Of a stretch of DNA of 64,000 nt, positions 14,043 through 36,691 are shown one piece after another. The notes beneath the pieces are model-generated. The model saw nothing but the letters and a program-made list of their open reading frames with translations, searched no databases and was not told the origin of the DNA. Source of the DNA: Nitrospinaceae bacterium (lineage in GTDB: Bacteria; Nitrospinota; Nitrospinia; Nitrospinales; VA-1); the NCBI GenBank assembly GCA_029261595.1, contig JAJDAZ010000010.1, forward strand, positions 68,152 through 132,151. Direction: 5' to 3'. The position numbers were made by a program, and so were the translations under genes. Position 1 is the first letter of the stretch, and each line of letters starts with the position of its first letter.

Positions 14043-15047
14043 ATGACCTCGGCTTTAAAGTCAAAAAAGAAGAGATTGTTATACGTCATCGCCTGGGTCG
14101 TGGCGTCGGCGTGCATTTACCTGGCAGTTGACAAATTTCAATGGGAGTCCGTTCTAGCCGAATTAAAGACCGTCAGTTTTTTCTGGTTGTCCCTGGCCGT
14201 TTTCGGCAATTTTTCAATCCTGATATTGTCGGCGTTGCAATGGCTCAATTTTCTTCCCAGGGACTTTCATTTTGGATTTCGCAAGATGGTCGAAATCATC
14301 GCGCTCATGGTCATGACCAGCAACACCGTGCCATTTTTAGCCGGTCACGCCCTTGCCGTGGTCCTGCTTGCCAAGCGGGCAAACGTCGGACATGCCGTCG
14401 CTCTATCGGTGATCGCATTGGACCAGTTTGCCGAAGGGTTCGCCAAACTCTCGCTTTTCCTTTTGGTCGTCGTTCTCACTCCCATTCCAGACTGGATGCA
14501 ACAGGGATTGCTGGTCGCCCTAACCGCCATTCTTTTGCTTTTTGCGATGCTGTATTTTTTCGCATTTCGGCATCGGCATTTTAAGGTTTTCATGGGCAGG
14601 AAATCCCATCCCCGCTGGTACAAGGTCTGGCATTTTATTTCCCGATGGGCACATCATCTGGAAGGTTTGCGAAACCCCAGGATTTTTGTGATTGGAATGG
14701 GACTGGCTCTGGCAATGAAAGGAGCGGAGGCGTTAGCGATTCTGGCGATTCAAAAAAGCTTCGGGGTGGAGTTACCCCTATGGTCGATTTTTCTGGTCCT
14801 GGCCTCCATCAGCCTGATCACGATGGTCCCCGTGGCTCCCGGCAACCTGGGAGTTTATGAAGCCGCAGTTTTTTTTGTTTACCAATATTTAGGCTTGCCG
14901 CCTGAGCAGGCGTTGGGGCTGGCTCTCATGCAACACCTTTGCCTTTTGGCCCCCAACATCGGGACGGGATACCTCTTCCTGCTATTTCGTAATATTTATC
15001 CCAGGCACCGCCCCCCGGCGGAAGAGGACCCGCGGAAAGCAAAATGA
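14043..15047 (+). CDS. UPF0104 / LPG-synthase-TM 'flippase-like' membrane protein
   Basis: 334 aa with about 8 TM helices. Basic N-terminus followed by '...FFWLSLAVFGNFSILILSALQWLNFLP', typical of the TIGR00374-type family. Confidence 0.65.
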   Translation: MTSALKSKKKRLLYVIAWVVASACIYLAVDKFQWESVLAELKTVSFFWLSLAVFGNFSILILSALQWLNFLPRDFHFGFRKMVEIIALMVMTSNTVPFLAGHALAVVLLAKRANVGHAVALSVIALDQFAEGFAKLSLFLLVVVLTPIPDWMQQGLLVALTAILLLFAMLYFFAFRHRHFKVFMGRKSHPRWYKVWHFISRWAHHLEGLRNPRIFVIGMGLALAMKGAEALAILAIQKSFGVELPLWSIFLVLASISLITMVPVAPGNLGVYEAAVFFVYQYLGLPPEQALGLALMQHLCLLAPNIGTGYLFLLFRNIYPRHRPPAEEDPRKAK

Positions 15048-15048
15048 T

Positions 15049-16200
15049 CTAACCCGTCGCTGGGTTTTTAAGCTTAATGGCCTTCAGGTAAAGCGCATCG
15101 TGCTGCGTCATGACCTCCTTCCAGTCGAAGGGAGGCTCCGTTTCCCGGTTGTTGCGGGCAATGGATTCTCTGAGTTCAGGCTCCAGAATCAAGCGGACCA
15201 GATGGTCTTCCAACTCCTGATCGGTCCGCGCTAAAAATCCCTCCTTACCGGCCCGGATGAATCCCTTGACCCCTCCCCGGATTTTTGCCACAACGGGCAA
15301 CCCTGCGCAACGGGCCTCAAGCGCGGCGATGCCAAACGATTCCCATCGCGTGGGTTGAACATAAATATCCACCCTGGAAAAAACCTTGCGTATCTCCTCG
15401 CGGGTACGGTATCCGGGAAGTTCCACAATATCTTCCAACCCCAAATGCTTTATCTGTTTTTCCAGGGCCGGGCGTTTGGGCCCCTCGCCGATAATCTTGA
15501 CTTTCACCCGGATGTTTTCTGGCAGGCGCTTGAGGACTTTTGGCATTAATCGCACCAGAGCGTTTCCACGCTTTTTGCGGAACAGGCGCATGACGGAAAC
15601 GATCCATATTTCCTCCGGGTCCCTTTCCAAAGGAGTCATCTTCCATTCGCGGATATTCAACGCATTGGTTAAAACGGTGATTTCCCGGTTTTTCACCAGG
15701 GAGACAACGTCCTGAACCACCACCTCGCTCACTCCAGAAAACAACACCGGCCAGCGGGACCATTTAAATACCCAATCCAGAATGGCCAGCCCCCAGCGAT
15801 AGGGACCTATGATGGAATCCCAGGTAATGACTGCGGGAATGCCCAGTTTCTGGCTCAAATAAAGGCTTCCGTAGGAGGTGGGAGAGATAATATTGCAATG
15901 GCAATGAACGATATCGAAAGCTTCTTCCTTTAAAATGCGTTCTATTTTCCTGAACGCGCCTGGCGTATAGACAATACGGAAATTGGGCAATAAAGGAACT
16001 TTCAGGCGATGGATGCGAAATCTTTCTCCTTCTGTCTCCCCCGGAATCGGGGTGATCACATGTACTTCGTGGCCTTCTTTTGAAAGTTGGTCGGCCAAAT
16101 CCCGCATATGCATCTCTGTCCCGCCCATTTGCGGCAGAAACCAGTCACAAACCAGGGCGATTTTTAGCTTATGAGAAGGTAATGGGGAGGAATCGCTCAT
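15049..16200 (-). CDS. GT4-family (GT-B) glycosyltransferase
   Basis: N-terminus KIALVCDWFLPQMGGTEMHMRDLADQLSKEGHEVHVITP. C-terminus IIGEGPKRPALE ... ESFGIAALEARCAGLPVVA (the E-x7-E region). The donor and acceptor cannot be inferred; the protein resembles both the PimA/PimB and PIG-A classes. Confidence 0.85.
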   Translation of the reverse strand: MSDSSPLPSHKLKIALVCDWFLPQMGGTEMHMRDLADQLSKEGHEVHVITPIPGETEGERFRIHRLKVPLLPNFRIVYTPGAFRKIERILKEEAFDIVHCHCNIISPTSYGSLYLSQKLGIPAVITWDSIIGPYRWGLAILDWVFKWSRWPVLFSGVSEVVVQDVVSLVKNREITVLTNALNIREWKMTPLERDPEEIWIVSVMRLFRKKRGNALVRLMPKVLKRLPENIRVKVKIIGEGPKRPALEKQIKHLGLEDIVELPGYRTREEIRKVFSRVDIYVQPTRWESFGIAALEARCAGLPVVAKIRGGVKGFIRAGKEGFLARTDQELEDHLVRLILEPELRESIARNNRETEPPFDWKEVMTQHDALYLKAIKLKNPATG

Positions 16201-16499
16201 TTACTCCAATTTCCATATTTACAGTTAATAACGACCCGGCTCAAATTGTTGAGAAACCAATTCATCGCCAGACAACGGTGGAGTCCATCAGGAGATTGCA
16301 TAAAGGACGTGGCAAACAATGGGGAACAAAACCCACATGCGGGATTAAACCGGGAGTGCCCTTGTACAAGAACTGCTGTGGATGGTATTATGATATTTGC
16401 TTTGAAATCAATGGTAATTTTGCAGGTTGCTGAGAAAACCCCTGAAGTTTTTCGCGAAAGCCCCATTCTCTTTAAAACAAATTAAACCCGGCTCTTTAG

Positions 16500-17177
16500 A
16501 TGACGCTCCCTCGTAATCGTTTTTTCTCAAAATTTTCCTTGGTACCGGCGGTGCTTGCGTTTTCATTGTTGCTTTGCTCGTGGGCTCTGGCAACTCCCGG
16601 GAAATTGCCGGCAACCGATCCGGTAGGTTGGGTGTTCATAAAAGACGAAGCTCTCATTGAAGCCCCGATCTCCGTTGTGGAGCAACATTTCAAGGATGTC
16701 CAGAAAGCGGACGCCATGATTCCCGGTCTGAAAACAAAAAAAATTCTGGAACAACTTTCTGATAGCGAACGCATCGACTACGATCATTATAAGTTGCCCT
16801 GGCCTTTTAAAGACCGGTACACCGTCTACCGGGCCAGGGAAGAATTCCTTTCCCGACAGAAAATACGCATCACCCTCAAATCCTTGGATAACTATTCGTT
16901 TGAAGATAAGGGTAAAGTCGCTGTTAAAATAAGAGAAAGCCATTTTCTATTAAAATCGCTTCCGGGGGATGAGACAAAAACCCAGGTCACGGTTAATCTG
17001 ACAGTGAATCCCGGCGGTTTTTTACCGGTCTGGCTCATTAACTTGAACGCGAAATCCATGTCGAAAGATTTATTTAAAAATTTGCGAAGAAACATCAGAA
17101 AAGAGTTTGCCAGACAAAAACACTTTCAGAAAGATAGTATCAAAGATGCGATAGTGGACTCGGTTTCCAATTTATGA
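16500..17177 (+). CDS. secreted START/SRPBCC lipid-binding domain protein
   Basis: Signal peptide ending SWALA. 'DYDHYKLPWPFKDRYTVYRAREEF' and the overall 200-aa size fit the START-like fold. Confidence 0.6.
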   Translation: MTLPRNRFFSKFSLVPAVLAFSLLLCSWALATPGKLPATDPVGWVFIKDEALIEAPISVVEQHFKDVQKADAMIPGLKTKKILEQLSDSERIDYDHYKLPWPFKDRYTVYRAREEFLSRQKIRITLKSLDNYSFEDKGKVAVKIRESHFLLKSLPGDETKTQVTVNLTVNPGGFLPVWLINLNAKSMSKDLFKNLRRNIRKEFARQKHFQKDSIKDAIVDSVSNL

Positions 17178-17464: not shown

Positions 17465-18373
17465 ATGCTCCAATATAAAGAAGATTTACGAACTCTCTTT
17501 TTTATGTCTGCCATCACCACCCTGTTGGTCGTGCAATGGAAAATTGGCGAGATTCAATTTCTTCTTTATATTCCCAGCCTGATTCTGGCCGTTTCAGTGA
17601 GCATCATGGTTCACAACCACATTCATGTCCCCCTTTGGAAATCTAAAACTCTCAACCTTTTAACCGATTACTGGCTCACCTTTTTTTACGGTTATCCTAT
17701 CTGCGGATGGATCCCGACTCATGTGATGAGTCATCATGTTTTGAACAATCAGGACGGAGACACGTCACGAACCAGTTTAGTAGGAAAAAAGAATAATCTT
17801 TTCACTCTATTGATATATCCAACGGCGACGACCCGGGCTCAATTGCCAACTCATTTTGTTTTCCTGAAAAAACTTTGGGCAAAAAACCGTCGGCGCTGTT
17901 ACAAGTATATTTCACAATTCGCGGTCTTTGGCGGAATGATGCTCATCGCCCTGCTCTGGGATTGGAAGAAAACCCTTCTTTTTATTTTCATTCCACAGCA
18001 AACTGCCGTAACCACAGTCCTCTTTTTTAACTATGTCCAGCACGTTCATGCCGACCGCGATTCTCGCTGGAATCACACTCGGGATTTTATTGGGCGAATT
18101 TCAAACTTTCTGCTCTTAAATAATGGGTTTCATGGCGCACACCACGAGCGCCCCAACCTTCATTGGAGCCGGCTTCCTGAGTTGCACTCAAAAATTGAAA
18201 ATCAAATCAATCCTGTTTTGATTGAACAAAGCATATTGTGGTTCTTTTTCCGTGTTTATATTCTGGGTCTTTTCTTCAAACGTTTTCACACCCAGGATTT
18301 AAGAGAACTGCGTCTCAGTGGACATGCAACGGTCCCTCAGCCTCAAACGGCTTCCGGGGCAGGAGTCAATTAG
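17465..18373 (+). CDS. membrane fatty-acid desaturase family protein
   Basis: Three His boxes (HNHIH, HVMSHH, HGAHH) spaced as in the FA_desaturase family, with 4 or more TM segments. Confidence 0.8.
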   Translation: MLQYKEDLRTLFFMSAITTLLVVQWKIGEIQFLLYIPSLILAVSVSIMVHNHIHVPLWKSKTLNLLTDYWLTFFYGYPICGWIPTHVMSHHVLNNQDGDTSRTSLVGKKNNLFTLLIYPTATTRAQLPTHFVFLKKLWAKNRRRCYKYISQFAVFGGMMLIALLWDWKKTLLFIFIPQQTAVTTVLFFNYVQHVHADRDSRWNHTRDFIGRISNFLLLNNGFHGAHHERPNLHWSRLPELHSKIENQINPVLIEQSILWFFFRVYILGLFFKRFHTQDLRELRLSGHATVPQPQTASGAGVN

Positions 18374-18438
18374 TTGAAATAGGGCCTAAGAGGTTGTGAT
18401 GAACGAATAAAAATTGTACGCGCACATTTAAACCATTT

Positions 18439-19488
18439 ATGGGTAACACACCAAATTTAAAAGCACCGTTGGACTACATTCATGTCAATTCTCCTGAACC
18501 TCATGTTGCACGAACGAAAGAACTTTTAAAAAAATATCCTGAGATTCGGACCCTCTTCGGTCACACCCCTTCTACCGCCTGGTGGACGGTTGGCCTGGTT
18601 TCCCTCCAGTTTTTCCTGGCAATCACTCTTACAAACGCGGCATGGTGGGTGGTTATTTTGGCGGCATGGATTCTCGGGGCATTTATTGAACACGCTCTAT
18701 TTGTCATTATTCACGATTGCGCGCATAATCTGGCCTTCAAGCGGCCCTCCTGGAATAAGGTCCTTGGGATCATCGCCAACTTACCAGGTTTTTTTCCAGC
18801 AGCGATTGGGTTCCGTAATTTTCATTTGCTGCATCACCGAAATATGGGGGAACTGGGTTGGGACGCTGATATTCCCGGTCCTAAAGAAGCCGCCTGGATA
18901 GGAAAAAGCCCTTTTCGCAAAACCCTGAGCTTACTCTTCTTTACCGTAGTCGAAGGTCTCATTCGTCCTGCCCGTTTGAAGAAGGTCAATCTGCTGGATG
19001 CCTGGGGAGTGATTAATGGCATTGCTTCAATTGGCGCGGGCCTTTTGATCCTTTATTTTTTCGGCGGGTCTTCCTTTTTCTATCTGGTTCTATCCTGTAT
19101 GTTTGGAATAGGCCTGCACCCTCTTGGCGGTCGCTGGATTCAGGAGCATTATATATTTCGACCGGGCCAGGAAACCTACTCCTATTACGGTCCCTTAAAT
19201 AAACTGAGCTTCAACGTGGGTTATCATAATGAACATCACGATTTTATGATGGTTCCCTGGTCGCGACTACCCCAAATAAGAAAAATTGCTTCCGAATACT
19301 ATGATGACCTTTTGTATCACACCTCCTGGACGAAGGTCCTTTGGCAGTTTATTCTGGACCCAAATCTGACAGGATTCAGCCGCATGGTTCGCCAAGACCA
19401 TGAAGAAGGAAGCTCTGTAAAATTTTCCACCCAGGAAACCGATAAAATCAACGAGAGCAACCAAAACGCAGTTATTCCGGTCTCATAA
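18439..19488 (+). CDS. sphingolipid delta-4 desaturase (DEGS/Des1)-like protein
   Basis: His boxes HDCAHN, HLLHHR and HNEHHDF. '[25 protein letters not shown]' is nearly identical to my recollection of animal DEGS1 ('[25 protein letters not shown]'). The N-terminus '[12 protein letters not shown]' matches the Lipid_DES N-terminal domain. Confidence 0.85.
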   Translation: [349 protein letters not shown]

Positions 19489-19493
19489 ATATA

Positions 19494-20522
19494 TTACCCG
19501 GCCCAGCGCAGAATAACCTTTCCGGTGGATTTTCTCGTTTCCAGGAAGGCGTGCGCCTCAGCTACCTGATCCGCCGGGTACTCTCCTCCCACTGTCGGGT
19601 TCAGCTCTCCTTTTTCGGCCAAATCCACAACGGTACGCATGCAGCGTTGCAGAACCTCAGGCCTATTCTCGGCAATTTTCAGCATGTTCACTCCAAGAAC
19701 GCATTTGGAGTTTGAGAGAAGCTGAAGACTGTGGACAAACCCGAACCCCAGCACCGTCCGCAGGACGCGAAAAAAATCCCATCGACTACCGGTCATTCCT
19801 GCGACGCCGAAGGCCACGATCCGTCCTCCGGAACCAAGGAGGTTGTAGCCTTTGCGAAAGGTTTTACCGCCGATGGAATCAAAAACCACATCCAATCCTC
19901 TCTCTCCACAAATATTGCGGATTTCTTTTTCAAAATCATTTTGCCGGTAATTGATCGGATGATCCACGCCGATCTCCCGGAGATAATCGAGTTTCGTTTG
20001 CGAACCGGCTGTCCCAAAAACAACGCACCCTCGGCGTTTGGCCATTTGAACCAATGCCGTCCCGACTCCGCCAGCCGCCGCTTGGATGAGAACGTGGTCC
20101 CCGGTCTTAAGGCAAACCATTTCCGCCGCCGCGTACCAGGCCGTACAATATTGCGTGGCCAGCGCTGTGGCCACACCCGAATCCATCGCTTCCGGAATTT
20201 TCACCGTCACCATCGAATGGGTCACCACTTTATCTGAATAACCCCCGAATCGCGTGAAGGCCAACACGCGGTCGCCTGAACTCAATTTCTCAACCCCCTC
20301 ACCCACCCCAATTACCCTGCCCACCACTTCGTAACCCAGAACACAGGGTATCCTGGGTGCATCGGGATAAAGCCCCCGCCTGGCCAATACATCGGCAAAA
20401 TTCAGTCCGGAAGCTTCCACTTCGATCAGGACCTCGCCTTCACCCGGCACCGGGTCTTTTACCTCGCGCATTTCAAATGCGGTATTCGAATTTCCTAAGC
20501 GAATCAAGTAGATCGATTTCAT
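19494..20522 (-). CDS. MDR-superfamily NAD(P)H quinone oxidoreductase / enoyl-reductase-like (VAT-1-like)
   Basis: 342 aa. GroES-like N-terminus (EVLIEVEASGLNFADVLARRGLY). Rossmann segment 'HVLIQAAAGGVGTALVQMAKRRGCVVFGTAGS'. Confidence 0.85.
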   Translation of the reverse strand: MKSIYLIRLGNSNTAFEMREVKDPVPGEGEVLIEVEASGLNFADVLARRGLYPDAPRIPCVLGYEVVGRVIGVGEGVEKLSSGDRVLAFTRFGGYSDKVVTHSMVTVKIPEAMDSGVATALATQYCTAWYAAAEMVCLKTGDHVLIQAAAGGVGTALVQMAKRRGCVVFGTAGSQTKLDYLREIGVDHPINYRQNDFEKEIRNICGERGLDVVFDSIGGKTFRKGYNLLGSGGRIVAFGVAGMTGSRWDFFRVLRTVLGFGFVHSLQLLSNSKCVLGVNMLKIAENRPEVLQRCMRTVVDLAEKGELNPTVGGEYPADQVAEAHAFLETRKSTGKVILRWAG

Positions 20523-20583
20523 ATTCTAATAAATTACGAAACTCCCTGGACGAACCGCCAAATTCCGTCAGGGGGAAAAATGT

Positions 20584-21363
20584 TTACTCAGAAATTTGAG
20601 TTTGACAGGAAGTTGGTTTGGGAGGCGCATCATCTATGGGAATTCCTGATAATTTGGCAACCCACGGGAATCGGCTGATTTCTTCCCCGGTATACCCAAG
20701 ATTAAAAACCGTTGGGCTCAAGGGCACTTGCTTTGACTTTACTAGATAAGTTCCTAATACTCTGTCCGGGAAGGCGCTCGTGATACCGTAATTGCCGTGT
20801 TCATTGTGAAAGTGATGAGACAAATGCAGTTTCTTGAGGGTACGAAAAAATTTCGACTTTGGTGTATAGTTCAAGTGCTCGACACAATGGCAATATTCAT
20901 AAAAGCATGTGTACCACAATCCGGCGGCTAAAGCTCCAGCACAACCGCTGGCCCCGCCAAGCCCCAGCCAGCCCAATGGGGCGGCAATAATAAACACCGT
21001 GGGAATGATCGTGTAGGGCGCGGCAAATAAAACGCTCAGGTCATTCGGGTTTTGGTGGTGATCGAAGTGAATCCGTTTCCACAAAGCCGATGTGAACTGG
21101 AATTGGTAAAGTAAACGTGAGTGCAGTAAATACTGATGTATAAAATATTCTGAAAAAGGATATATAATACAACAGCCGAAAATCGCTACGATCAGCGACC
21201 AGAGGTTTTGGGCCCAATAAATGGATAAACCGGCAAAAAGGCTTCCCAATAGAAAATATAATTGGATCGATGGGTAAGAAATATAGGCTTTAAAAAATTC
21301 TCGAAAGCTTAATTTGTCGAGAAATTTTTCACTTTCCTTCCAATATCCGGATCCAAAAAACAT
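20584..21363 (-). CDS. FA2H/Scs7-like fatty-acid (sphingolipid alpha-) hydroxylase family protein, no cytochrome b5 domain
   Basis: His motifs align one-to-one with recalled human FA2H. EYFIHQYLLH aligns with EYVLHRFLFH. HFDHHQNP aligns with HGQHHKSP. YEYCHCVEH aligns with YDMTHYYLH. LKKLHLSHHFHNEHGNYGIT aligns with [20 protein letters not shown]. Confidence 0.75.
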   Translation of the reverse strand: MFFGSGYWKESEKFLDKLSFREFFKAYISYPSIQLYFLLGSLFAGLSIYWAQNLWSLIVAIFGCCIIYPFSEYFIHQYLLHSRLLYQFQFTSALWKRIHFDHHQNPNDLSVLFAAPYTIIPTVFIIAAPLGWLGLGGASGCAGALAAGLWYTCFYEYCHCVEHLNYTPKSKFFRTLKKLHLSHHFHNEHGNYGITSAFPDRVLGTYLVKSKQVPLSPTVFNLGYTGEEISRFPWVAKLSGIPIDDAPPKPTSCQTQISE

Positions 21364-21587: not shown

Positions 21588-21665
21588 TACGGGTCAGTTT
21601 AATGTTCTCTGCCCATTACTCTGGAATTTTTATTGCAGATTATAGATCAAGTTAAAGAAACAAGA

Positions 21666-27442: not shown

Positions 27443-27490
27443 CCGCAATCAACCTTGGAATCCGATGAAAGCGCGGTTCGCGCTTCCCTC

Positions 27491-30600: not shown

Positions 30601-33600
30601 TCGACACGTTTTCAAAGCCTGCGCCCTGCAACTCTCTCGAAACATCACTGCCGTCTATCAATGGGAGGGCCGGCACTTTTTCCGCTCCGGTATCGACTTC
30701 ACAAGACCCGAGGATCAACCTCAACCAGTTTGAAGTTGAGGTCCAGTCCAACTCCAGCAGGAGACCCCGGGATGCAAGCAACTCCAAAAGATTCCGCGCA
30801 ACTTTTTGAGGTTCTTCTGTCCCAAAGTTTAAATGCGACCCGAGGATCAAATCAAAAGAATGAGGAATAAACTCCTGCGTGGCTGGAGAAACGTTTAGAT
30901 CCAGCGTTTGAAACTCGACGAATGAAAATTCGCGCAGTTTTTGCGTGGCTTTTTCAAGCCCTGCCTCGGAAGATTCCGTATGAATGTATTCCACCCGGTC
31001 CTCGGGGCAGTGGCGAAGAAAGGCAGGGGCCATCGCTCTCCCGGTCACGCCCCCTATTCCCAGCACCCTTAACTTTCTGCCTTCCGGCAAATGACCGAGC
31101 AGTGAAGAAACCACTTTTTGCGCCAGCGAATTATAAATCTGCGAACTCAATGCGCTCTGCTGGAGTCGATCAAAAATCGCATCCTGTTCCAGAAAATTTG
31201 CTTGCAGTCCTTCGCTTTCGCCTTTAAGGATGCCCGCAAGGTTTTCCCCCGCAATCCGTAATAAATTGAGTTCGCCTAAAAATGCAGGAAATTCGCCGAT
31301 CAGCGATTTCCATAGGGTCTGCGGATTATCAATTTTTGCGGGAAGGGAACCCATCTGCCACTCGGAACCTTCCTTCTTTAAAATTCCTTCGTTTTTAAAA
31401 ATACAAAAACAACTCTCCAGATACGCGGAGTGTTTGGGGACCAATTGGAACTGCTCGATAAAAGACGCGGTGGAAAACCCGGTCAGCGAATCAAACTCAG
31501 GAGCGAGATTTTTTAAAGCACTCAGCACATAAGCCGCACCCAGGCGATTGAATCGGGGCTCGATGGAATTATAAAAATCGGCCAAATGGAGGGCCTCGGT
31601 CAAACCCTCCATCTCCTTTTTCAGGGAGGATACGATTTGATCGGGTGTTGGGAGAAAGGCGGCAGAACGGCATTGCCTTTCACCTACCTCTTCAACACAA
31701 GGTTCCCAACGCCACTGATACAGCCAGTCATCCGGGTTCAGCAGGTCCCGCCCCCGGGATGGATTCAAGGCTCGAAAATGAAGCCCCTGGCACTCGACCC
31801 AGACTTTCCCCGAGTCATCGAACATCTTGATGTCCACCACCGCCTGACTGCTGTCAAATTTCACCGCCTGCACGTGGACCCAAAGAGGACTTTCGGGCGA
31901 GCCATGAAATCGAACCCGGTCCGCCGAGATCGGTAGGAAAAGTTTTTTTGTGAGCGCATCCACGTCCAAAGCCAATAACGCGGAAACCTGAAACGCCGCA
32001 TCCAGAATGGCGGGATGGATCTGATACCGCTTCGCATTTAGCCCAAGTGCTTTGGGACTTTTAAGCAATGCCAAAGCCTCTCCATCTCCGCGCCAGGATT
32101 TGTCGATCCCCTGAAACGCAGGACCATAGTCCAATCCCATTTTTCGGAAGGTTTCATACAGTTTATCCGACAACACTTCATTTACGCATCGGCTCTTAAT
32201 GTTTTCCAGATCGATTGTTTCGGGATCACCCTGGTTAAATGGATCGCCCAGTGTTCCACTGGCATGCAAGGTCCAGGTCTGATTGGTCCGGTCGGAAAGA
32301 CTGTGGATTTTGAAGGACGCATCGATGGGGTCGTGGGTCATCTGGGTTTTTAGACCCCGGTTTTTTGGAACGACCAACGCATTATGAAACTCGATCGATT
32401 CCAGAACACATGAAACGTCTTTGTTGACCTGTTTGGCCATGGCCAGAGCCGACTCGACAAACCCTGCGCCTGGGAAAATGAGGATTCCCTTGACCGCATG
32501 ATCGCCAAGATAGGTCAACTCGCGCTTGTCGATTCGGGTTTGCCAGTGGCAGGATGAAGATTCCATCGCCCATCCAAGCAAAGGATGTACATCGGGGGCC
32601 AACGGGTCGAACCCTTTCTCTTCTCTCTCATGCCAATGGCGCTCCCTTTGCCAGGGATAGTACGGCAATGAAACGCAATGCCCACCATGCGGAAAAATCG
32701 GATTCCAATCAATCGATCGCCCCAGGCTGTAAAGGTTTCCCAGCGAATTCACCATCACTTTGCGGTCGTCCTCTTTGTGGTTTAAAGAAGGCAGAACCGT
32801 TCCCTCGCGTTTTAAATGGGAAAGGCATTCGGAGATATTGGCTCCCAAAACGGGGTGCGGGCTCAATTCCAAAAACGTGGTGTACCCATCGTTGACCAGT
32901 TCTTCAGTCGCTTTATAAAAGCGGACGGGGTTCCTGACATTGCCCCACCAGTAATCGGCATCCAATTGATCTCCGCCCTCTAGTTTTCCGCTTACGGTGG
33001 AATAAAAGGGAATTGAACTTGACTGGCACTGCAGGCCATTCAAGGACTCCACCAACCCCTGACGGATGGAATCCATTTGATGACTATGAAAGGCGTAATT
33101 GACTTTCAGGTAGCGACAGAAAACTTCCTGTTGCTGAAGGGGTTCGATCATTTTTTCCAGAGCTTCGGGATCTCCTGAAACGGTGACGGATTTGGGACTG
33201 TTCACCGCCGCCAGGGAGATTTCATTTTCCCGGCCCTTGAGCGCTTCAGCGATTTTCCCTTCAGGATAACCGACGACCGCCATCTTCCCCTTGCCTGCCA
33301 TTTTGTGAAGCCAGCGCCCGCGATGATAAACAACCCGAACCGCCTCTTCCAGGGAATAAATCCCCGCCACATAAGCCGCCGCCGCCTCCCCGATACTGTG
33401 CCCTATGACGGCAGAAGGTTCGATGCCCCACGAGCGCCATAAATCGGCCAGAGCCACCTGAAGAGAAAAAAGTGCGGGCTGGGTAATATGAGTTTCATTG
33501 ATTTTGGATTTGTTTTCATCCGCCATCAATTCTTCCCACAAAGACCAGTCTGCATGGCGACTGAACAGTTCGTCGCAACGCTTGATCACCGCGCGAAATA

Positions 33601-35353
33601 CCGGTTCCTGTTCCAGAAGCTTTCGGCCCATTCCCCACCATTGCGGCCCCTGCCCGGAAAAAACGAAAGCGATTCTGGGGTTTTCAATTTTGACCTTTTT
33701 TTCACTTGGCTTGATTCCCGTGGCCAGACCGCTGGATTTTTTTTCACTGATTTTTTTTCCGGTGGACAAGCCGGTATGCTTTTCATTATTTAAAAAGGCC
33801 TGTAGCCCATCCATAAAATCTTGAACGGAAGTGCCCGTCACTGCAAGTCGATGATCGTGATGGCTTCTTCTGAGGGATGCGGTGTAGCAGACATCATTCA
33901 GGTCGCGTTGAATCCAGTTATCTTTTCGGGAAAAAAATTCGATATAAGATGCGGCAAAATCTTTCAGCGCATCCTGACTGCGGGCCGACAGGGGCAGGCA
34001 ATATGACTGGGAATCTTTGGAAGATGATTCCGGACTCTCAGGCTCGGTCGTGACCGGGGATTCTTTTAAAATGACGTTTGCGTTGGTGCCACCGAAGCCA
34101 AAAGAATTGACCCCTGCGAGGGCCGGTTCGGTTCTTTTGGGCCAGGGGACCCGGTTTTTGGGAACCTGCAATTGCAGTTTCTCAAAATTTATTTCAGGGT
34201 TGGGTTGATTAAAATGGAGATTGGGCGGGATTTCCTTATGCTTCAGAGAAAGGGCCGCTTTCATCAAACCGGCGATTCCCGAGGCCGACTCCAAATGACC
34301 GATATTGGTTTTCACGGAACCTATGAAACAGTTGTCCTCTGCAGGACGGTCCTCGGCCAGAACCGCTCCCAAGGCATTGGCTTCAATGGGGTCGCCAATC
34401 GGTGTGCCGGTGCCGTGAGCTTCCATGTACTGAATCTGGTGGGCTGAAATCCCGGCATTTTTACAACCTTCTAAAAACAGCGCTTTCTGCGATTCCCCGT
34501 TTGGAACCGGCATGGCCAGAGTTTGACCGTCTTGATTGGAGGTCGTCGAAAGAATGAGCGCATAGATCGGATCGTTGTCTTCAATCGCTTTTTTTACCGG
34601 CTTTAATAGTGCGATTCCGGCCCCTTCTCCCCGAACATAGCCTTTTCCCGCCGCATCGAAAGACCGGCACCGGCCATCGGGAGACAGCATCCCCCCTTTG
34701 CCAAGGGTGATGGTGACTTCCGGGGTCAACATGGCATTGACGCCTCCGGCCACCGCCATGCTGGATTCGCCATTCCAGATACTCTGGCAGGCCTGATGAG
34801 CCGCCACCAGCGCCGAGGAGCAGGCCGTATCCACCACAAAACTTGGCCCCTTAAAATCAAAGAAATAAGAAATGCGATTGGCCGCTACACTCTGTGCCAC
34901 CCCGGTTCCGGTATGGCCATCGACGCAATGCAGGTCGAGTCTGATGAGATCCCTGTAGTCCGATCCGGAAATACCAAGGAAGACCCCGACCGGCGTCCCG
35001 GCAAGACGGTCTGCTGTCTGGCCGCCGTCTTCTAAAGCTTGCCACACGCATTCCAGGAGGATGCGTTGCTGGGGGTCCATTTGATTGGCTTCCCTGGGGG
35101 AAATGCCAAAAAAACGGGCGTCGAACATTTCGATAGAATCGATGAACCCACCCCACCGGGAAACGGTTTTTCCTGGAGCTTTGGGATTGGGACTGTAATA
35201 GGTTTCTGCATTCCATCGGTCCGGCGGAACTTCTATAATGGCGTCTTTCCCCTGACGCAACAGGTCCCAGTATTCCTGTGGGCTATTGGCGCCACCGGGA
35301 AACCGGCAGCCCAATCCAACAATGGCTATGGGTTCATTTCGGAGGGCACTCAT
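27653..35353 (-). CDS. FAS-like fully reducing type I polyketide synthase, KS-AT-DH-(MT-like)-psiKR-ER-KR-ACP, no TE/R/C release domain
   Basis: 2566 aa. KS aa 6-430 (nt 34064-35338): DTACSS C178, EAHGTGT, NIGHLE. AT aa 560-860 (nt 32774-33676): GHSIGE S653, YAFHS. DH aa 920-1195 (nt 31769-32596): H952 in LGDHAVKGILIFP. MT-like aa 1240-1600 (nt 30554-31636): VLGIGGVTG, FDLILGSHLNFGT. ER aa 1870-2178 (nt 28820-29746): LIHAASGGVGMAA. KR aa 2195-2375 (nt 28229-28771): ITGGLGGFG, Y2345. ACP aa 2465-2545 (nt 27719-27961): LGLDSL S2511. Acidic C-terminal tail. Confidence 0.95.
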   Translation of the reverse strand: MSALRNEPIAIVGLGCRFPGGANSPQEYWDLLRQGKDAIIEVPPDRWNAETYYSPNPKAPGKTVSRWGGFIDSIEMFDARFFGISPREANQMDPQQRILLECVWQALEDGGQTADRLAGTPVGVFLGISGSDYRDLIRLDLHCVDGHTGTGVAQSVAANRISYFFDFKGPSFVVDTACSSALVAAHQACQSIWNGESSMAVAGGVNAMLTPEVTITLGKGGMLSPDGRCRSFDAAGKGYVRGEGAGIALLKPVKKAIEDNDPIYALILSTTSNQDGQTLAMPVPNGESQKALFLEGCKNAGISAHQIQYMEAHGTGTPIGDPIEANALGAVLAEDRPAEDNCFIGSVKTNIGHLESASGIAGLMKAALSLKHKEIPPNLHFNQPNPEINFEKLQLQVPKNRVPWPKRTEPALAGVNSFGFGGTNANVILKESPVTTEPESPESSSKDSQSYCLPLSARSQDALKDFAASYIEFFSRKDNWIQRDLNDVCYTASLRRSHHDHRLAVTGTSVQDFMDGLQAFLNNEKHTGLSTGKKISEKKSSGLATGIKPSEKKVKIENPRIAFVFSGQGPQWWGMGRKLLEQEPVFRAVIKRCDELFSRHADWSLWEELMADENKSKINETHITQPALFSLQVALADLWRSWGIEPSAVIGHSIGEAAAAYVAGIYSLEEAVRVVYHRGRWLHKMAGKGKMAVVGYPEGKIAEALKGRENEISLAAVNSPKSVTVSGDPEALEKMIEPLQQQEVFCRYLKVNYAFHSHQMDSIRQGLVESLNGLQCQSSSIPFYSTVSGKLEGGDQLDADYWWGNVRNPVRFYKATEELVNDGYTTFLELSPHPVLGANISECLSHLKREGTVLPSLNHKEDDRKVMVNSLGNLYSLGRSIDWNPIFPHGGHCVSLPYYPWQRERHWHEREEKGFDPLAPDVHPLLGWAMESSSCHWQTRIDKRELTYLGDHAVKGILIFPGAGFVESALAMAKQVNKDVSCVLESIEFHNALVVPKNRGLKTQMTHDPIDASFKIHSLSDRTNQTWTLHASGTLGDPFNQGDPETIDLENIKSRCVNEVLSDKLYETFRKMGLDYGPAFQGIDKSWRGDGEALALLKSPKALGLNAKRYQIHPAILDAAFQVSALLALDVDALTKKLFLPISADRVRFHGSPESPLWVHVQAVKFDSSQAVVDIKMFDDSGKVWVECQGLHFRALNPSRGRDLLNPDDWLYQWRWEPCVEEVGERQCRSAAFLPTPDQIVSSLKKEMEGLTEALHLADFYNSIEPRFNRLGAAYVLSALKNLAPEFDSLTGFSTASFIEQFQLVPKHSAYLESCFCIFKNEGILKKEGSEWQMGSLPAKIDNPQTLWKSLIGEFPAFLGELNLLRIAGENLAGILKGESEGLQANFLEQDAIFDRLQQSALSSQIYNSLAQKVVSSLLGHLPEGRKLRVLGIGGVTGRAMAPAFLRHCPEDRVEYIHTESSEAGLEKATQKLREFSFVEFQTLDLNVSPATQEFIPHSFDLILGSHLNFGTEEPQKVARNLLELLASRGLLLELDWTSTSNWLRLILGSCEVDTGAEKVPALPLIDGSDVSRELQGAGFENVSKWAGSKERSHSLQTFFVARGPKVYVEDSSEEIKTPKPGKKGSWIIFSDGKGTGQALAESLKNFGENPFLVTPGKIFKADEDGPIQIRPESLEDMGDLIHFVRKKTPALRGIVHLWNLDLPETGDLSPDSLQQAEAVGGMSAIHLVNELANAKWSKTPRLFIITQGGQSVRSQEKNISVAQAPAWGIGRVIQSEHSNFKCKLVDLDPESGDPPARALFEELWQEDAEEEVAYRQDRRFVYRLHRPEPEETCVDSLIQENNEEPPAFVMDIGAPGILENFQLRSVSRSKPGPGELEIRVFAAGLNFRDVMIGMGLLPGELEGVDNTWETLGLECAGVVSAVGEGVTDFKVGDEVAALAGGGCFGSYTLAPTFATVHKPPKIGFSDAATIPVTFLTAWYMLHSAGKMQKGERVLIHAASGGVGMAAVQIAQLAGAQVFATAGNDEKRGFLRDLGVEHIFDSRSLAFAEQIMQQTQGEGVDLVLNSLAGKFIFKSIEILKPLGRFLEIGKRDIYENNKIGLRPFLKGISFITMVEIKEGFKSLNNEFRAIFIEIMRHMEEGSLHPLPHRIFPISNAVSAFRTMAQGRHMGKVVLSLEEPDLKIIRHEEASMKFSREASYLITGGLGGFGLAIAEWMVQQGARHLALMGRSETPSIEAKTAIARMEETGAVVQVVRGDVSLQEDVTRVLGEIESSMPPLKGIHHAAAVLDDGLLIHLTPQRLKRVMGPKVQGAWNLHQQTQDKQLDFFTLFSSVANVMGNPGQANYVAANAFLESLARYRRAQGLSGQVIDWGPLSGVGVAARQQGLIKSMENQGLMSLSSRQAVEMLGRVMHQNPVQIGVFPVDWKKLLSLSRSGSNPARFSYVQGDGAQSESAGDGEGDELIRPKLLAALPDERPQILAEHLKESIAKVLRLAPSKLEMDLPLADLGLDSLMAMELIVRIETDLQITVPVVRFLGGPSIDHMVPWLLEEIKNQEDDEEEPDEENS

Positions 35354-35497
35354 TTAATTTGTTGGGCTATTGCTTTTATTGGCTTCTTGAGAGAAAGTTC
35401 TACCCTAAGACCTTATTATAGTCGCGGTTGAGGGGGCTATTCTAAATTGTCGCACATTGGGAAGCAAATAATATATTGTTCGCCGCTACCGCACTGT

Positions 35498-35514
35498 ATG
35501 GATTAAAAATCCAT
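35498..35514. promoter_or_regulatory. 17-bp palindrome in the PKS/GNAT divergent promoter region (candidate operator)
   Basis: ATGGATT-AAA-AATCCAT, i.e. perfect 7-bp arms. It lies 41 nt upstream of the GNAT ATG (35555) and 145 nt upstream of the PKS ATG (35353). Confidence 0.3.
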
Positions 35515-35554
35515 TATTTTCAATCGTTTTGATATTTTCTCAGGACCCGTCTTC

Positions 35555-36691
35555 ATGCTGATCGTAAAACAGGTTAACGGCAATAAAAAGGGGATGGCTG
35601 ATTTCCTTAAACTCCCCTATTCGCTTTACAAGAATGACAAAAACTGGTGCCCGCAACTAAGGTATGAAAGAAAAATATTCTTCAGCGACAAAAATCCCTT
35701 CATGAAACACAGCGAGGTCGGTTTTTTCGTCGCTTACCAGGATAATCAACCGGTCGGGCGGGTCACCGCGCATCGAGACGATGTTTACGATGATTTCTAT
35801 AAAATCCGGCAAGGGTTTTTTGGTTTCTATGAAGCGATTGAAAAAGACGAGGTTGCCGGGAAGCTGATGCACTCCTGTGAAGAGTGGATTAAAAGCCGGG
35901 GAATGGCTTCGTTAATCGGGCCCTGCAATTTTACCACCAACCACGAGGTGGGATTATTGACCCAGGGTTTTAACAACCCTCCCGTAATCATGATGCCCTA
36001 TACCAAACCCTATTATCCGGATCAGCTATATAAATTGGGTTACCAAAAAGAAAAGGAGCTCCTTGCTTTCTGGGTCGATAGAAACACCGAGGTGCCAGAA
36101 CTATTTACCGTCATGGCCAAGCGGGTGGCGCGGGAACTCGACGGGAATTTTGAAATCAGAACGATTGATATTGGGAAACTGAAATCGGAATTGAAAATTA
36201 TTTTAGATATCTACAACGAGGCGTGGAACAAAAACTGGGGATTCGTTCCCATGACGGAAGAAGAAATCGATGTCATGGCCCAGCAGCTCAAACATTTCGC
36301 CTTCCCGGATTTTATTTATATTTTGTATAAAGATGATGAACCTACCGCGTTTTTGCTCGCCCTTCCAGATATCAACAATGCGTTGATCCAGATCAAATCG
36401 GGGAAACTTTTTCCCACCGGAATTTTCAAGCTTCTTGCCCCGCAAAAATATTTCAAGACCGGAAGAGTCCTCCTGATGGGGGTGAAAAGCGCATTCCGGA
36501 ATCAGGGGCTCGATTTTCTGCTTTACCATCGCATGATGGAGGACATCATCACGAAAGCCCCGAAACAAATTCAGGGCATGGAGCTTTCCTGGATTCTTGA
36601 AGATAATCTCGTGATAATCAATATTCTAAAAACTTTGAATGCGGAACTCTATAAGCGCTATGTCATTTTGAAAAAAACCCTCGACCCGTGA
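35555..36691 (+). CDS. tandem-GNAT-fold (NMT/FemX-like) acyltransferase family protein, function unknown
   Basis: 378 aa. 'GPCNFTTNHEVGLLTQGFNNPPVIMMPYTKPYYPDQLYKLGY' and the C-terminal 'ELSWILEDN' match a widespread uncharacterised ~380-aa GNAT family as I recall it. Confidence 0.6.
   Translation: MLIVKQVNGNKKGMADFLKLPYSLYKNDKNWCPQLRYERKIFFSDKNPFMKHSEVGFFVAYQDNQPVGRVTAHRDDVYDDFYKIRQGFFGFYEAIEKDEVAGKLMHSCEEWIKSRGMASLIGPCNFTTNHEVGLLTQGFNNPPVIMMPYTKPYYPDQLYKLGYQKEKELLAFWVDRNTEVPELFTVMAKRVARELDGNFEIRTIDIGKLKSELKIILDIYNEAWNKNWGFVPMTEEEIDVMAQQLKHFAFPDFIYILYKDDEPTAFLLALPDINNALIQIKSGKLFPTGIFKLLAPQKYFKTGRVLLMGVKSAFRNQGLDFLLYHRMMEDIITKAPKQIQGMELSWILEDNLVIINILKTLNAELYKRYVILKKTLDP

Follow-up and report, generated by a model that had tools for sequence, protein, structure and literature searches.

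A conserved, modular Nitrospinota locus that may build a glycosylated inositol-phosphoceramide with an acyl chain from a FAS-like polyketide synthase

The DNA analysed here (the window) is a 64-kb stretch from a Nitrospinaceae bacterium, and the open reading frame listing places 14 genes in its interval 14043-36691, which is 93% coding with intergenic gaps of -31 to 299 bp. An earlier note on this DNA had counted sixteen genes but named these same 14, and its coordinates and family calls all hold: the profile annotation it had suggested, run with Pfam and NCBIfam on the island ORFs, agrees with the families, as do fold models for two membrane glycosyltransferases of the GT-C type. Both strands are used, with the genes falling into at least seven transcription units. 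We compared the island with loci on other contigs (given L-numbers below), and it was found again in at least six related contigs, the nearest named relatives being Nitrospinae/Nitrospinaceae MAGs. Since the island's genes recur on other contigs in unchanged order at 47-82% protein identity, the arrangement is not due to chance. The block is kept in L003, L085/L002/L169, L086, L170 and L172 (a neighbourhood comparison also proposed by the note), and the locus is conserved, modular and chromosomal. Its head-group core module consists of a PIP synthase, an Aur1/BT_1522-like transferase of the PAP2_3 family, a GT4, a flippase-like protein, a START-like protein and one GT-C; further modules are a GT2 with a second GT-C, and a GNAT with or without a polyketide synthase (PKS); and the optional tailoring genes are a DEGS-like desaturase (DES) with an MDR reductase, an Scs7-like hydroxylase and a second desaturase.

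An LptF/LptG-family permease gene (9920..11149, + strand; Pfam LptF_LptG, E 3e-79) borders the island outside the coordinates given by the earlier note, and such a gene does so in L003, L086, L169 and L172 despite their varying internal gene order. Next comes a predicted lipoprotein of the calcineurin-like phosphoesterase family (12150..13487, - strand; weak Pfam Metallophos match), which has weak similarity to purple acid phosphatases and homologues in the same position in L003 and L086 (53-65% identity). A tblastn search then revealed a decayed CE4 deacetylase (13775..13912, + strand; Polysacc_deac_1, ArnD-like, cytoplasmic), in which 46 residues align with the C-terminus of the L003 deacetylase and an in-frame stop is present; the gene is intact in L003, L086, L169, L172 and L008. 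The flippase-like membrane protein (14043..15047, + strand; LPG_synthase_TM PF03706, E 2e-37; TIGR00374) belongs to the MprF flippase-domain family, has about seven hydrophobic segments, is kept in every island variant seen, and would flip the lipid-linked head group into the periplasmic leaflet. The START/Bet v1-like secreted protein (16500..17177, + strand) scores just under the cut-off with both START (20.8 bits) and Polyketide_cyc (20.4 bits) and has an N-terminal signal peptide ending in ALA before TP. Its gene lies between those for the GT4 and the PAP2_3 protein in L002, L003, L086 and L172, and its product may carry lipids through the periplasm. In Caulobacter, sphingolipids are exported by LptF2/G2 paralogues (bioRxiv 10.64898/2026.04.12.717747), and the bordering permease, a possible exporter, may be functionally linked to the island.

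Two genes bear directly on the head group. The CDP-alcohol phosphatidyltransferase (26786..27448, - strand; CDP-OH_P_transf PF01066) scores as the inositol-phosphate-using, PIP synthase-like type: the NCBIfam models for archaetidylinositol-P synthase, BT1523-type PIPS and PIPS give 150, 145 and 140 bits (all below their equivalog cut-offs of 170-350), PgsA gives 28 bits, and the motif Dx2DGx2ARx8Gx3Dx3D is complete. The PAP2_3 protein (21633..22643, + strand; E 6e-17) is an Aur1/BT_1522-like phosphoinositol transferase and candidate inositol-phosphoceramide synthase, with the Bacteroides phosphoinositol dihydroceramide synthase as top NCBIfam model (135.6 bits against a cut-off of 480) and yeast Aur1 as best PDB match (1e-13); the PSGH and HHYxxD motifs are present and the Kx6RP phosphatase motif (C1) is absent. 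The function of BT_1522 was shown genetically in Bacteroides, and bacterial inositol-phosphoceramide synthesis has already been described (PMC9246714). PAP2_3 homologues adjoin Spt-GNAT-CerR genes in L092, L104 and L119; the marine contig L104 has CDP-OH, DES, hydroxylase, PAP2_3, Spt, GNAT and CerR genes contiguously, and L092 and L119 are similar. These head-group genes could instead serve a PIM- or GPI-like, diacylglycerol-based glycosyl-phosphatidylinositol with no sphingoid base, an explanation that we consider rather unlikely. The PIP synthase and the PAP2_3 protein, as PIP phosphatase, would here yield phosphatidylinositol, the GT4, deacetylase, flippase and GT-C would make the glycan, and the GNAT would join the PKS chain to an amino sugar or inositol. 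PgpB-type PAP2 enzymes are lipid-phosphate phosphatases, which counts in its favour; however, the PAP2_3 protein lacks the Kx6RP of PAP2 phosphatases, its nearest characterised relatives are IPC synthases, and L170 has a separate classical PAP2 beside the PIP synthase in addition to PAP2_3. The minimal variant, L172, holds only the PIP synthase, PAP2_3, GT4, deacetylase, flippase, one GT-C, START and LptF/G genes, with no GNAT, DES or hydroxylase near the head-group genes and the GT2 and second GT-C also absent, and thus fits a diacylglycerol-based product equally well.

The tandem GNAT (35555..36691, + strand) is, judged by its sequence, a member of the bacterial ceramide synthase (bCerS) family and a candidate ceramide synthase. 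The earlier note had seen no recognisable ceramide synthase in the window, a statement that this homologue overturns, since it shares 33-43% full-length identity with GNATs encoded between Spt and CerR. Spt is in the locus for 47 of 80 metagenomic GNAT homologues, at most 500 bp away in 41 of the 47, and CerR for 37 of the 80; among GNAT loci of at least 10 kb, 30 of 40 have Spt, at a median distance of 69 bp from the GNAT. Bacteriovorax MAG loci have the order Spt (NCBIfam serine palmitoyltransferase, 495 bits), GNAT, Epimerase-family reductase, and an alphaproteobacterial locus with two LptF/G genes about 2.5 kb from its GNAT is comparable to Caulobacter ccna_01212-01214 (bioRxiv 10.64898/2026.04.12.717747). 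Such tight linkage to Spt speaks against a diacylglycerol-based product. So does the deacetylase pseudogene, since a GNAT that is still intact here beside it argues against action of the GNAT on a de-acetylated sugar. In that product's favour, Spt and CerR were unseen in every Nitrospinota-like locus examined. Indeed, genes for Spt, CerR, inositol-phosphate synthase (MIPS) and a PIP phosphatase were all absent from the 64-kb window and the related loci examined (the note's reported absence of Spt and MIPS is confirmed within the window), and we therefore infer, rather than observe, the ceramide backbone. These absences weigh against a ceramide product, given how closely Spt usually accompanies the other bCerS-like genes that have one (41 of 47, as above), and so do the NCBIfam scores of the PAP2_3 protein and PIP synthase, which stay under their cut-offs.

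The tailoring genes point towards sphingolipids. The DEGS-like enzyme (18439..19488, + strand; Lipid_DES, 46.8 bits against a cut-off of 23, and FA_desaturase), of the sphingolipid delta-4 desaturase/C4-hydroxylase family, has three His boxes that are invariant in 34 homologues, and DES homologues sit beside Spt-GNAT-CerR operons in L028, L073 and L104. The MDR reductase (19494..20522, - strand; ADH_zinc_N; TIGR02824, 245 bits), zinc-independent and of the PIG3/quinone-oxidoreductase type, has homologues of 52-55% identity next to DES in three unrelated loci (L009, L025 and L030) and is absent where DES is absent (L086). The Scs7/FA2H-family di-iron lipid hydroxylase (20584..21363, - strand; FA_hydroxylase PF04116, E 1e-19) has Scs7p as its sole solved relative (1.7e-10), intact His motifs and no cytochrome b5 domain; its homologues adjoin Spt/GNAT in L028, L073, L024, L104 and L116. 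Presence in the window of a Lipid_DES enzyme and an Scs7-like hydroxylase, with homologues in Spt operons, further disfavours the diacylglycerol-based alternative. The remaining membrane fatty-acid desaturase/hydroxylase family enzyme (17465..18373, + strand; FA_desaturase PF00487, E 1e-24) has three intact His boxes and is not found in L002, L003 or L086, being an accessory tailoring gene seen in the source organism only. The label "eukaryote-type" that the note gave to these enzymes does not fit, as homologues of DES, the hydroxylase and the Aur1-like enzyme occur widely among bacteria and adjoin bacterial Spt operons.

The 2566-aa protein encoded at 27653..35353 (- strand) is an iterative, fully reducing FAS-like type I PKS with the Pfam domain order KS-AT-DH-pseudoMT-ER-KR-ACP. 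Active-site motifs are intact in the KS, AT (GHSIG, YAFH), DH, ER, KR (LDD) and ACP, SAM motif I of the MT is degenerate (VLGIGGVTG), and no TE or R domain was found; that the 64-kb window has no PKS release domain, as the note reported, is confirmed. Orthologues in L003, L085 and L086 are 57-79% identical. GNAT orthologues adjoin the PKS in L085 and L086, the two genes are divergently paired in the island, and the GNAT is the most obvious candidate for off-loading the PKS. Not every island has a PKS: in L170 the GNAT adjoins the CDP-alcohol transferase and the PKS is absent.

The remaining genes would build a glycan. The cytoplasmic GT4 (15049..16200, - strand; Glycos_transf_1/Glyco_transf_4) has BshA (1e-19), PimA (4e-15) and MshA as closest solved relatives and would attach the first sugar of the glycan to the inositol head group. 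Two membrane proteins without Pfam annotation are, on their predicted folds, GT-C enzymes. The first (22687..24273, + strand; AF2 pLDDT 92.3), with no Pfam match, belongs to the STT3/ArnT-like class and carries a periplasmic domain at its C-terminus; Foldseek aligns it with STT3/AglB/PglB/ArnT (E 3e-6 to 1e-5, TM ~0.5-0.56), and D51 and a YRP motif in the first loop are invariant. The NCBI gene call starts this gene 21 codons later. The second (25260..26816, + strand; AF2 pLDDT 89.5), of the PIG-M/ALG3/PimE class, matches only PMT_2 in Pfam, below threshold; Foldseek ranks Candida glabrata GPI mannosyltransferase I with Dol-P-Man first (E 1.9e-5, TMt 0.67) and ALG3 and PimE next, and a profile including distant GT87 members matches GPI-MT-I by sequence (5e-10), while one of the close family gives no such match. 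PimA among the GT4 relatives, and the resemblance of this GT-C to PimE and PIG-M, two enzymes with PI-based glycolipid substrates, are points for the diacylglycerol-based product. The soluble GT2 (24378..25217, + strand; PF00535, E 1e-29), polyprenyl-phosphate sugar synthase-like (DPM1/Ppm1/ArnC-like) and with no predicted TM segment, matches best the NCBIfam models AglJ, dolichyl-phosphate hexose transferase, PpgS and ArnC, all far below cut-offs, and would provide the GT-C enzymes with their lipid-linked donor.

Alternatively, the GT2, deacetylase and GT-C might act in an Arn/Lgm-like manner, adding an amino sugar from an undecaprenyl-phosphate carrier to lipid A or some other envelope phosphate, the inositol genes being unrelated. 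The alignment of the first GT-C with ArnT (TM ~0.56), the weak similarity of the GT2 to ArnC and PpgS, the adjoining LptF/G gene and the cytoplasmic deacetylase of the relatives, whose N-terminus resembles ArnD, would fit. We nonetheless think this highly improbable: the GT2 reaches 47 bits with the ArnC model against a cut-off of 529, ArnA/ArnB-type genes are absent from the window, in this island the deacetylase is a pseudogene but the GT2 and both GT-C genes remain intact, the second GT-C resembles PIG-M, ALG3 and PimE and not ArnT, and the strict linkage to PAP2_3 and PIP synthase would go unexplained.

Modularity itself raises the idea that an inositol-lipid/sphingolipid set, an unrelated PKS product and a GT-C/GT2 set serving LPS, capsule or protein glycosylation are merely neighbours. 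The PKS is missing from L170, the GT2 and second GT-C from L172 and the tailoring genes from L086; transcription is split as described above; and proteins like the first GT-C also occur beside MptA/B-family mannosyltransferases without PAP2_3. We judge mere juxtaposition improbable, as the families remain linked despite rearrangements and across distant lineages (for example, PAP2_3, GT4, flippase and GT-C are all together in L008, a Pseudomonadota MAG, in a JGI contig and in L087), and the PKS, where present, always lies between PIP synthase and GNAT. In addition, both GT-C families are small, with 104 and 51 clusters among 5.8 billion proteins. Of the members with examined context, nearly all share the island setting; one protein like the first GT-C (L171) lies with MptA/B-family genes instead.

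On balance we lean towards the idea that the product of the locus is a glycosylated inositol-phosphoceramide of the cell envelope, with an acyl chain from the FAS-like PKS that lacks a release domain. The PKS would use its own ACP to assemble a long saturated acyl chain, and the neighbouring bCerS-type GNAT, or an Spt encoded elsewhere, would take this chain to give ceramide from a serine-derived long-chain base, which DES, the hydroxylase, the second desaturase and the MDR reductase would tailor. PIP synthase, together with a phosphatase, would supply phosphatidylinositol, from which the Aur1-like enzyme would transfer phosphoinositol to ceramide. The GT4 would place the first sugar on the cytoplasmic face, the ArnD-like deacetylase would then expose an amine in relatives (its gene is decayed here), both GT-C enzymes would extend the glycan with polyprenyl-phosphate sugar from the GT2, and the START-like protein and LptF/G-like permease may carry the product outward. 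We likewise infer the sugar identities, chain length, PKS hand-off and transport roles. The earlier note had proposed a lipid of this type, and the Aur1/BT_1522, PIPS and bCerS-family evidence favours it and puts it on firmer ground; its PKS chain is not a feature of every variant.

Sugar-decorated inositol-phosphate sphingolipids are known mainly from fungi and plants, and the searchable literature turned up no Nitrospinota sphingolipid or inositol lipid. We rate the pathway as a variant on known bacterial inositol-sphingolipid pathways; the Nitrospinota island appears to hold most of the genes needed for such a lipid, paired with a FAS-like PKS.

The island at 14043-36691 holds 14 genes in the ORF list, exactly those that the earlier note had named one by one and not the sixteen of its count, and all of its family calls were upheld by Pfam and NCBIfam. 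These searches match an LPG_synthase_TM flippase-like protein, a GT4 glycosyltransferase, an FA_desaturase protein (17465-18373, + strand), a Lipid_DES plus FA_desaturase protein (DES), a PIG3-type MDR reductase, an FA_hydroxylase, a PAP2_3 protein, a GT2 glycosyltransferase, a CDP-OH_P_transf protein, a KS-AT-DH-MT-ER-KR-ACP synthase (PKS) and a GNAT acyltransferase; a START/Bet v1-like protein, which carries a signal peptide, has a weak family match, and two membrane proteins, GTC1 and GTC2, complete the set. Homology and gene context together establish these enzyme families. The coding share of the island is 93%, with intergenic gaps of -31 to 299 bp, and a motif check found the catalytic motifs intact in the CDP-alcohol transferase and in all three di-iron enzymes. 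The GC composition of the window gives no foreign-island signal, and tRNA and Rfam scans of the 64-kb window were empty.

Neighbourhood conservation, which the earlier note had proposed examining, extends to related loci on other contigs (L003, L002/L085/L169 and L086), where the gene order of the block is kept at 47-82% identity. Close homologues of GTC1 and GTC2 carry Nitrospinae or Nitrospinaceae MAG labels, and one syntenic locus lies in assembly GCA_021604505.1, where proteins on the same contig are recorded at NCBI as "Nitrospinaceae bacterium" NPINA01. The names of these relatives make Nitrospinota the most likely origin of the window. That the island is a chance juxtaposition of separate pathways is a less likely explanation, and one that we consider distinctly improbable. 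The island is modular. Four genes, those for DES, MDR, the hydroxylase and the second desaturase, are missing from L086; L170 (GCA_024648695.1, 11529-14214) has a GNAT (59% identity) directly adjoining the CDP-alcohol transferase and no PKS, and carries a third GT-C as well as an additional classical PAP2 of 238 aa beside the CDP-alcohol transferase. The smallest version, L172, consists in full of LptF/G, a deacetylase, the flippase-like protein, GT4, the START-like protein, PAP2_3, one GT-C and the CDP-alcohol transferase. Related head-group modules are also found in L008, a Pseudomonadota MAG, together with DES, hydroxylase and an MMPL transporter, in one JGI contig and in L087, and an 8.8-kb Verrucomicrobiota contig (L088) has GT-C genes, a GT4 fragment and a Phosphodiest-family enzyme, with no PAP2_3.

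The earlier note had found no recognisable ceramide synthase; however, the GNAT gene (35555-36691, +) encodes a homologue of acyltransferases from Spt-GNAT-CerR operons. The protein has 378 aa and no hydrophobic segment, its size and fold fit those of a soluble GNAT-type bCerS of ~370-400 aa, and its match to Acetyltransf_1 is weak (the homologue in L028 scores 33 bits). It aligns over its full length, at 33-43% identity and with 46 invariant columns, with GNATs encoded close to DES in other phyla. Two Bacteriovorax MAG loci have the order Spt, GNAT, Epimerase-family reductase, short unassigned ORF and hydroxylase; this Spt scores 495 bits with the NCBIfam serine palmitoyltransferase model, and the order of Spt, GNAT and reductase is the Spt-bCerS-CerR arrangement. 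We regard as the decisive test of bCerS-family membership a metagenome scan with the GNAT profile, which returned at least 80 loci at 35-42% identity, with no close relatives among the matches listed. Among those matches Spt is present in 47 of 80 loci and CerR in 37 of 80, Spt occurs in three quarters (30/40) of the loci of at least 10 kb, and 41 of the 47 Spt-bearing loci have GNAT and Spt less than 500 bp apart. Homology and gene context thus place the island GNAT in the bCerS family and make it a candidate ceramide synthase, which would N-acylate 3-ketosphinganine or sphinganine. In one alphaproteobacterial MAG two LptF/G genes share the GNAT locus at a distance of ~2.5 kb, an arrangement comparable to Caulobacter ccna_01212 to 01214, which are bCerS, LptG2 and LptF2 (bioRxiv 10.64898/2026.04.12.717747; PMC11087976).

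Neither Spt nor CerR was found in the 64-kb window or in the related loci read, so the earlier statement that the window lacks a serine palmitoyltransferase stands; whereas the homologous GNATs of many bacteria adjoin Spt and CerR, the neighbour of GNAT is the PKS in the window and the CDP-alcohol transferase in L170. An Aminotran_1_2 fragment near the related glycan module of L087 was considered as an Spt and is not counted as evidence, because it gave no match to Spt by tblastn.

Two enzymes of the island are assigned to a predicted inositol-phosphate head group. The sole NCBIfam match of the PAP2_3 protein (21633-22643, +) is the Bacteroides phosphoinositol-dihydroceramide synthase model NF052609, over residues 47-326, at 135.6 bits and under the equivalog cut-off of 480; its closest solved relative is yeast Aur1 (1e-13), with LpxE at only 0.33. 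The protein has PSGH at residue 267 (C2) and HHYVLD at 307 (C3, HxxxD), and no C1 Kx6RP. Kx6RP is the PAP2-phosphatase motif, and a PAP2 core that has C2 and C3 but lacks it is what we take to be the IPC-synthase pattern. The top three NCBIfam models of the CDP-alcohol transferase (26786-27448, -) are all inositol-phosphate-using, at 140-150 bits, with PgsA at 28 bits; its CDP-alcohol motif is complete, and it passes no equivalog cut-off (AIP synthase, 150 bits against 180; BT1523-type PIPS, 145 against 350; PIPS, 140 against 170). Genetics in Bacteroides identified BT_1522 and BT_1523 as the inositol-phosphoceramide and PIP makers (PMC9246714). PAP2_3 co-occurs with the CDP-alcohol transferase and GNAT within the island; in L104, a marine contig, CDP-OH, DES, hydroxylase, PAP2_3, Spt, GNAT and CerR are all contiguous, and in L092 and L119 CDP-OH and PAP2_3 lie at most 8 kb from Spt-GNAT-CerR. 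These three loci lend independent support, at the level of gene context, to a probable link between head group and ceramide. No inositol-phosphate synthase or PgpA-type phosphatase was found in the 64-kb window or in the related loci read, which for inositol-1-phosphate synthase (MIPS) bears out what had been said of the window.

The best fit to these findings, which we think moderately probable, is that the island builds a glycosylated inositol-phosphoceramide. Its main rival is a diacylglycerol-based lipid of the PIM or GPI type, with PAP2_3 acting as a PIP phosphatase. Such a lipid is favoured by the failure to find an Spt and by the reduced gene set of L172, but the motif pattern of PAP2_3 argues against a phosphatase, L170 carries its extra classical PAP2, the GNAT family is linked to Spt elsewhere, and the GNAT gene of the window is intact beside a dead deacetylase gene; we therefore judge this alternative unlikely.

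DES and the hydroxylase are members of families that act on sphingolipids in eukaryotes. DES (18439-19488, +) matches PF08557 at its N-terminus with 46.8 bits (cut-off 23) and PF00487 with 109 bits, and has all three His boxes (HDCAH, HLLHH and HNEHH). DES homologues adjoin Spt operons in L028, L073 and L104, a context that supports desaturation of dihydroceramide at C4 as its candidate activity. A scan of a genome collection with the DES profile gave at least 600 rows; relatives have at most 57% identity and belong to other phyla, with no Nitrospinota among the matches listed, and elsewhere, among those same matches, DES is mostly a stand-alone gene. The hydroxylase (20584-21363, -) matches PF04116 at 71.7 bits and Scs7p at 1.7e-10 with its His motifs intact; at 259 aa it is the hydroxylase domain alone, without the N-terminal cytochrome b5 of the eukaryotic enzymes. 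It is predicted to be an Scs7/FA2H family member, and may act at C2 or at C4. The PIG3-type MDR (19494-20522, -) pairs with the Lipid_DES gene in unrelated phyla at 52-55% identity (L009, L025 and L030), and MDR is gone wherever DES is gone. We know of no sphingolipid step that would explain this desaturase-reductase pair.

The PKS (27653-35353, -; 2566 aa) has the domains KS-AT-DH-(MT)-ER-KR-ACP, with motifs intact in KS, AT, DH, ER, KR and ACP. SAM motif I of the MT is degenerate (VLGIGGVTG), so this domain is probably a pseudo-methyltransferase, a state that it shares with the animal FAS, and an active C-methyltransferase was rejected on this ground. No TE or R release domain was found in the protein, which stops 22 residues past the ACP match; the absence of a PKS release domain was confirmed across the 64-kb window. 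Other reducing PKSs also lack a release domain, namely mycobacterial Mas/Pks2, which work with Pap acyltransferases, and the fungal fumonisin PKS, which works with an AONS. Like these, the island PKS is fully reducing, iterative type I and ACP-terminal, with a dedicated acyltransferase gene adjacent; unlike them, its partner is a bCerS-family GNAT and not a Pap/condensation-type or PLP enzyme. We propose that the chain may be handed directly to the GNAT.

The remaining genes of the island suggest how the lipid might be glycosylated. The nearest solved relatives of GT4 (15049-16200, -) are BshA, PimA and MshA, and the GT4 of the window has no PF08288 (PIG-A) match; the GT4 of L170 matches this domain weakly. 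GT2 (24378-25217, +) loosely resembles polyprenyl-phosphate sugar synthases and may be one. GTC1 (22687-24273, +) has no Pfam match, and its model (pLDDT 92) resembles STT3, AglB, PglB and ArnT, with a Foldseek probability of 1.00 to STT3/ArnT. An Arn-like modification of lipid A, to which an ArnT-like fold would also be suited, is a less likely role that we rate as very improbable. For the model of GTC2 (25260-26816, +; pLDDT 89.5) the top fold match is the GPI mannosyltransferase I of Candida glabrata with Dol-P-Man, followed by ALG3 and PimE, again with a Foldseek probability of 1.00; its PMT_2 score of 21.2 bits is short of the 26.1 cut-off. Acidic residues of the first extracytoplasmic loop are invariant (D51 in GTC1; D138/E142 in GTC2), and GT87 (PF09594) or PF05007 is found in a small number of distant homologues. 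Thus, in their predicted structures, both membrane proteins have the GT-C fold. Sequence searches of the PDB with GTC1 and GTC2 found nothing, and a sequence link of the GTC2 family to GPI mannosyltransferase I (profile A3) was gone once distant GT87-like rows were taken out; because that link depends on these homologues, it is the fold match alone that argues for the kinship of GTC2.

Relatives of the island have a cytoplasmic CE4 deacetylase gene upstream of the flippase-like gene. At the corresponding position the window has a CE4 (Polysacc_deac_1) pseudogene remnant of 46 residues with an in-frame stop (13775-13912); since five related loci have the gene intact, de-N-acetylation is a step that this organism has lost. 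The island is bordered by one permease gene of the LptF/LptG family (9920-11149), as are L003, L086, L169 and L172 despite differences in interior order. The permease may be a dedicated glycolipid exporter, by analogy with Caulobacter LptF2/G2, or a housekeeping gene. Between it and the island lies a predicted lipoprotein phosphoesterase, weakly purple acid phosphatase-like (12150-13487), that is syntenic in L003 and L086, and beside this gene is one for a 224-aa membrane protein (11212-11886). Flipping and export may fall to the products of the flippase-like, START-like and LptF/G-like genes.

Large membrane enzymes of the Sulfatase or Phosphodiest family occur in related modules (L002/L169, L087, L088, the JGI 3300056388 contig and L008), which also carry DUF2079; these enzymes, DUF2079 and MMPL are all absent from the window. 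Sulfatase/Phosphodiest are the families of EptA and of the GPI ethanolamine-phosphate transferases. Directly downstream of GNAT lie two overlapping genes (36699-38101), one for an MsrP-like molybdopterin oxidoreductase and one for an FGE-sulfatase-domain protein; genes with an FGE-sulfatase domain also occur close to the island of L170 and that of L172. Overlapping genes for a class-III aminotransferase and a DAO-type FAD oxidoreductase (49598-52076) lie 13 kb downstream of the island. A separate trio at 53181-56073, comprising a 309-aa protein without a Pfam match, a GT2 and a GT28-like glycosyltransferase, possibly has another glycolipid or cell-wall function, and is followed at 56085-56930 by a gene for a 281-aa protein with ATP-cone and Mrr-type restriction-endonuclease domains.

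In the order of steps that we infer for a glycosylated inositol-phosphoceramide, the PKS would make a saturated chain on its own ACP, which would be taken by the adjacent bCerS-type GNAT or by a distant Spt; the Aur1-like enzyme would then move phosphoinositol from PI, and GT4 would add a sugar at the cytoplasmic face. The lipid would be translocated by the flippase-like protein, its glycan extended by GTC1 and GTC2 with a polyprenyl-phosphate sugar as donor, and the product perhaps exported via the START-like and LptF/G-like proteins.

Among described systems, Bacteroides BT_1522-1526 and Spt-bCerS-CerR come closest, as do, for the glycan logic, mycobacterial PIM and the eukaryotic GPI/GIPC pathways. 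Bacteroides thetaiotaomicron BT_1522-BT_1526 (PMC9246714) shares with the island a PIP-synthase-type CDP-alcohol transferase and an Aur1-like phosphoinositol-dihydroceramide synthase, and its models are among the best NCBIfam matches of both island proteins, at scores well under the equivalog cut-offs. In contrast to that cluster the window has no MIPS or PgpA-type phosphatase, whereas the island has a GT4, flippase, GT2, GT-C and PKS that are all lacking in Bacteroides, where bCerS, DES and hydroxylase, likewise present in the island, are not found alongside the cluster. The Caulobacter ceramide pathway is Spt-bCerS-CerR according to PMC11087976 (citing Stankeviciute 2022). Over its full length the island GNAT is homologous to the acyltransferase that numerous bacteria encode between Spt and CerR, a comparison made via these operon homologues, and an LptF/G-family gene adjoins the locus as it does in Caulobacter, but the island GNAT adjoins a 2566-aa PKS and not Spt/CerR. 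Mycobacterial PIM/LM synthesis (PgsA1, PimA, PimE, Ppm1) likewise has a PIP synthase, a PimA-related GT4 and a polyprenyl-phosphate-sugar synthase like GT2, and PimE matches the fold of GTC2 (E 2.8e-4), but it lacks an Aur1-like transferase, bCerS, DES and hydroxylase, and its lipid is diacylglycerol-based.

Fungal and plant MIPC/GIPC synthesis and the eukaryotic GPI core (Aur1, Scs7/FA2H, DEGS, PIG-A, PIG-M, DPM1) use the same fold families and share a logic in which phosphoinositol is moved to ceramide, a cytoplasmic GT4-type enzyme adds the first sugar, and after a flip a lumenal or periplasmic GT-C attaches mannose with a polyprenyl-phosphate sugar as its donor. The sugars of eukaryotic MIPC/GIPC are added by GT32/GT64-type Golgi enzymes and not by GT-C. 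Unlike the GPI pathway, the window has no PIG-A domain in its GT4, no LmbE-type PIG-L, no transamidase and no EtNP transferase; where GPI synthesis uses PIG-L, relatives of the island have the CE4 enzyme, which is dead in the window. All that the island has of the GPI set is a PIG-M-like fold and a generic GT4; it works in the manner of parts of that pathway without belonging to it, and what the two share is fold families and topology. A bolder and rather doubtful idea is that Nitrospinota and a few other lineages make a GPI-like core, hexose(s)-GlcN/GlcNAc-inositol-phosphate on ceramide, with eukaryotic GPI/GIPC topology and folds, the PKS chain being passed directly to the bCerS-type acyltransferase. 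Its assembly would run through GT4, de-N-acetylation, a flip and a GT-C of the PIG-M class with a polyprenyl-phosphate sugar as donor; that of relatives would also involve the EtNP-transferase-like Sulfatase/Phosphodiest enzymes.

Work on the sphingolipids of bacteria, like that on their inositol lipids, is recent and still narrow, and to our knowledge the genetics of inositol-phosphoceramide synthesis in bacteria has been worked out in Bacteroides only. Our search, whose coverage of the literature was incomplete, gave no description of a sphingolipid or inositol lipid from Nitrospinota, nor of a bacterial glycosyl-inositol-phosphoceramide locus or GIPC/GPI-type system. If the island does make a glycosylated inositol-phosphoceramide, it would extend sphingolipids to a phylum of nitrite oxidisers that abound in the sea and have none reported, and would add a periplasmic glycan-extension module of GT-C enzymes, one of the PIG-M class, and a new feed into the sphingolipid pathway, a release-domain-less FAS-like PKS beside a ceramide synthase. 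It would also give ocean lipidomes a specific lipid class as a biomarker target, and offer a tractable bacterial system for inositol-glycolipid flipping and export. A GPI-like core, if real, would mean that the assembly of eukaryotic glyco-inositol-phospholipids has a counterpart in prokaryotes, from which it may have evolved.
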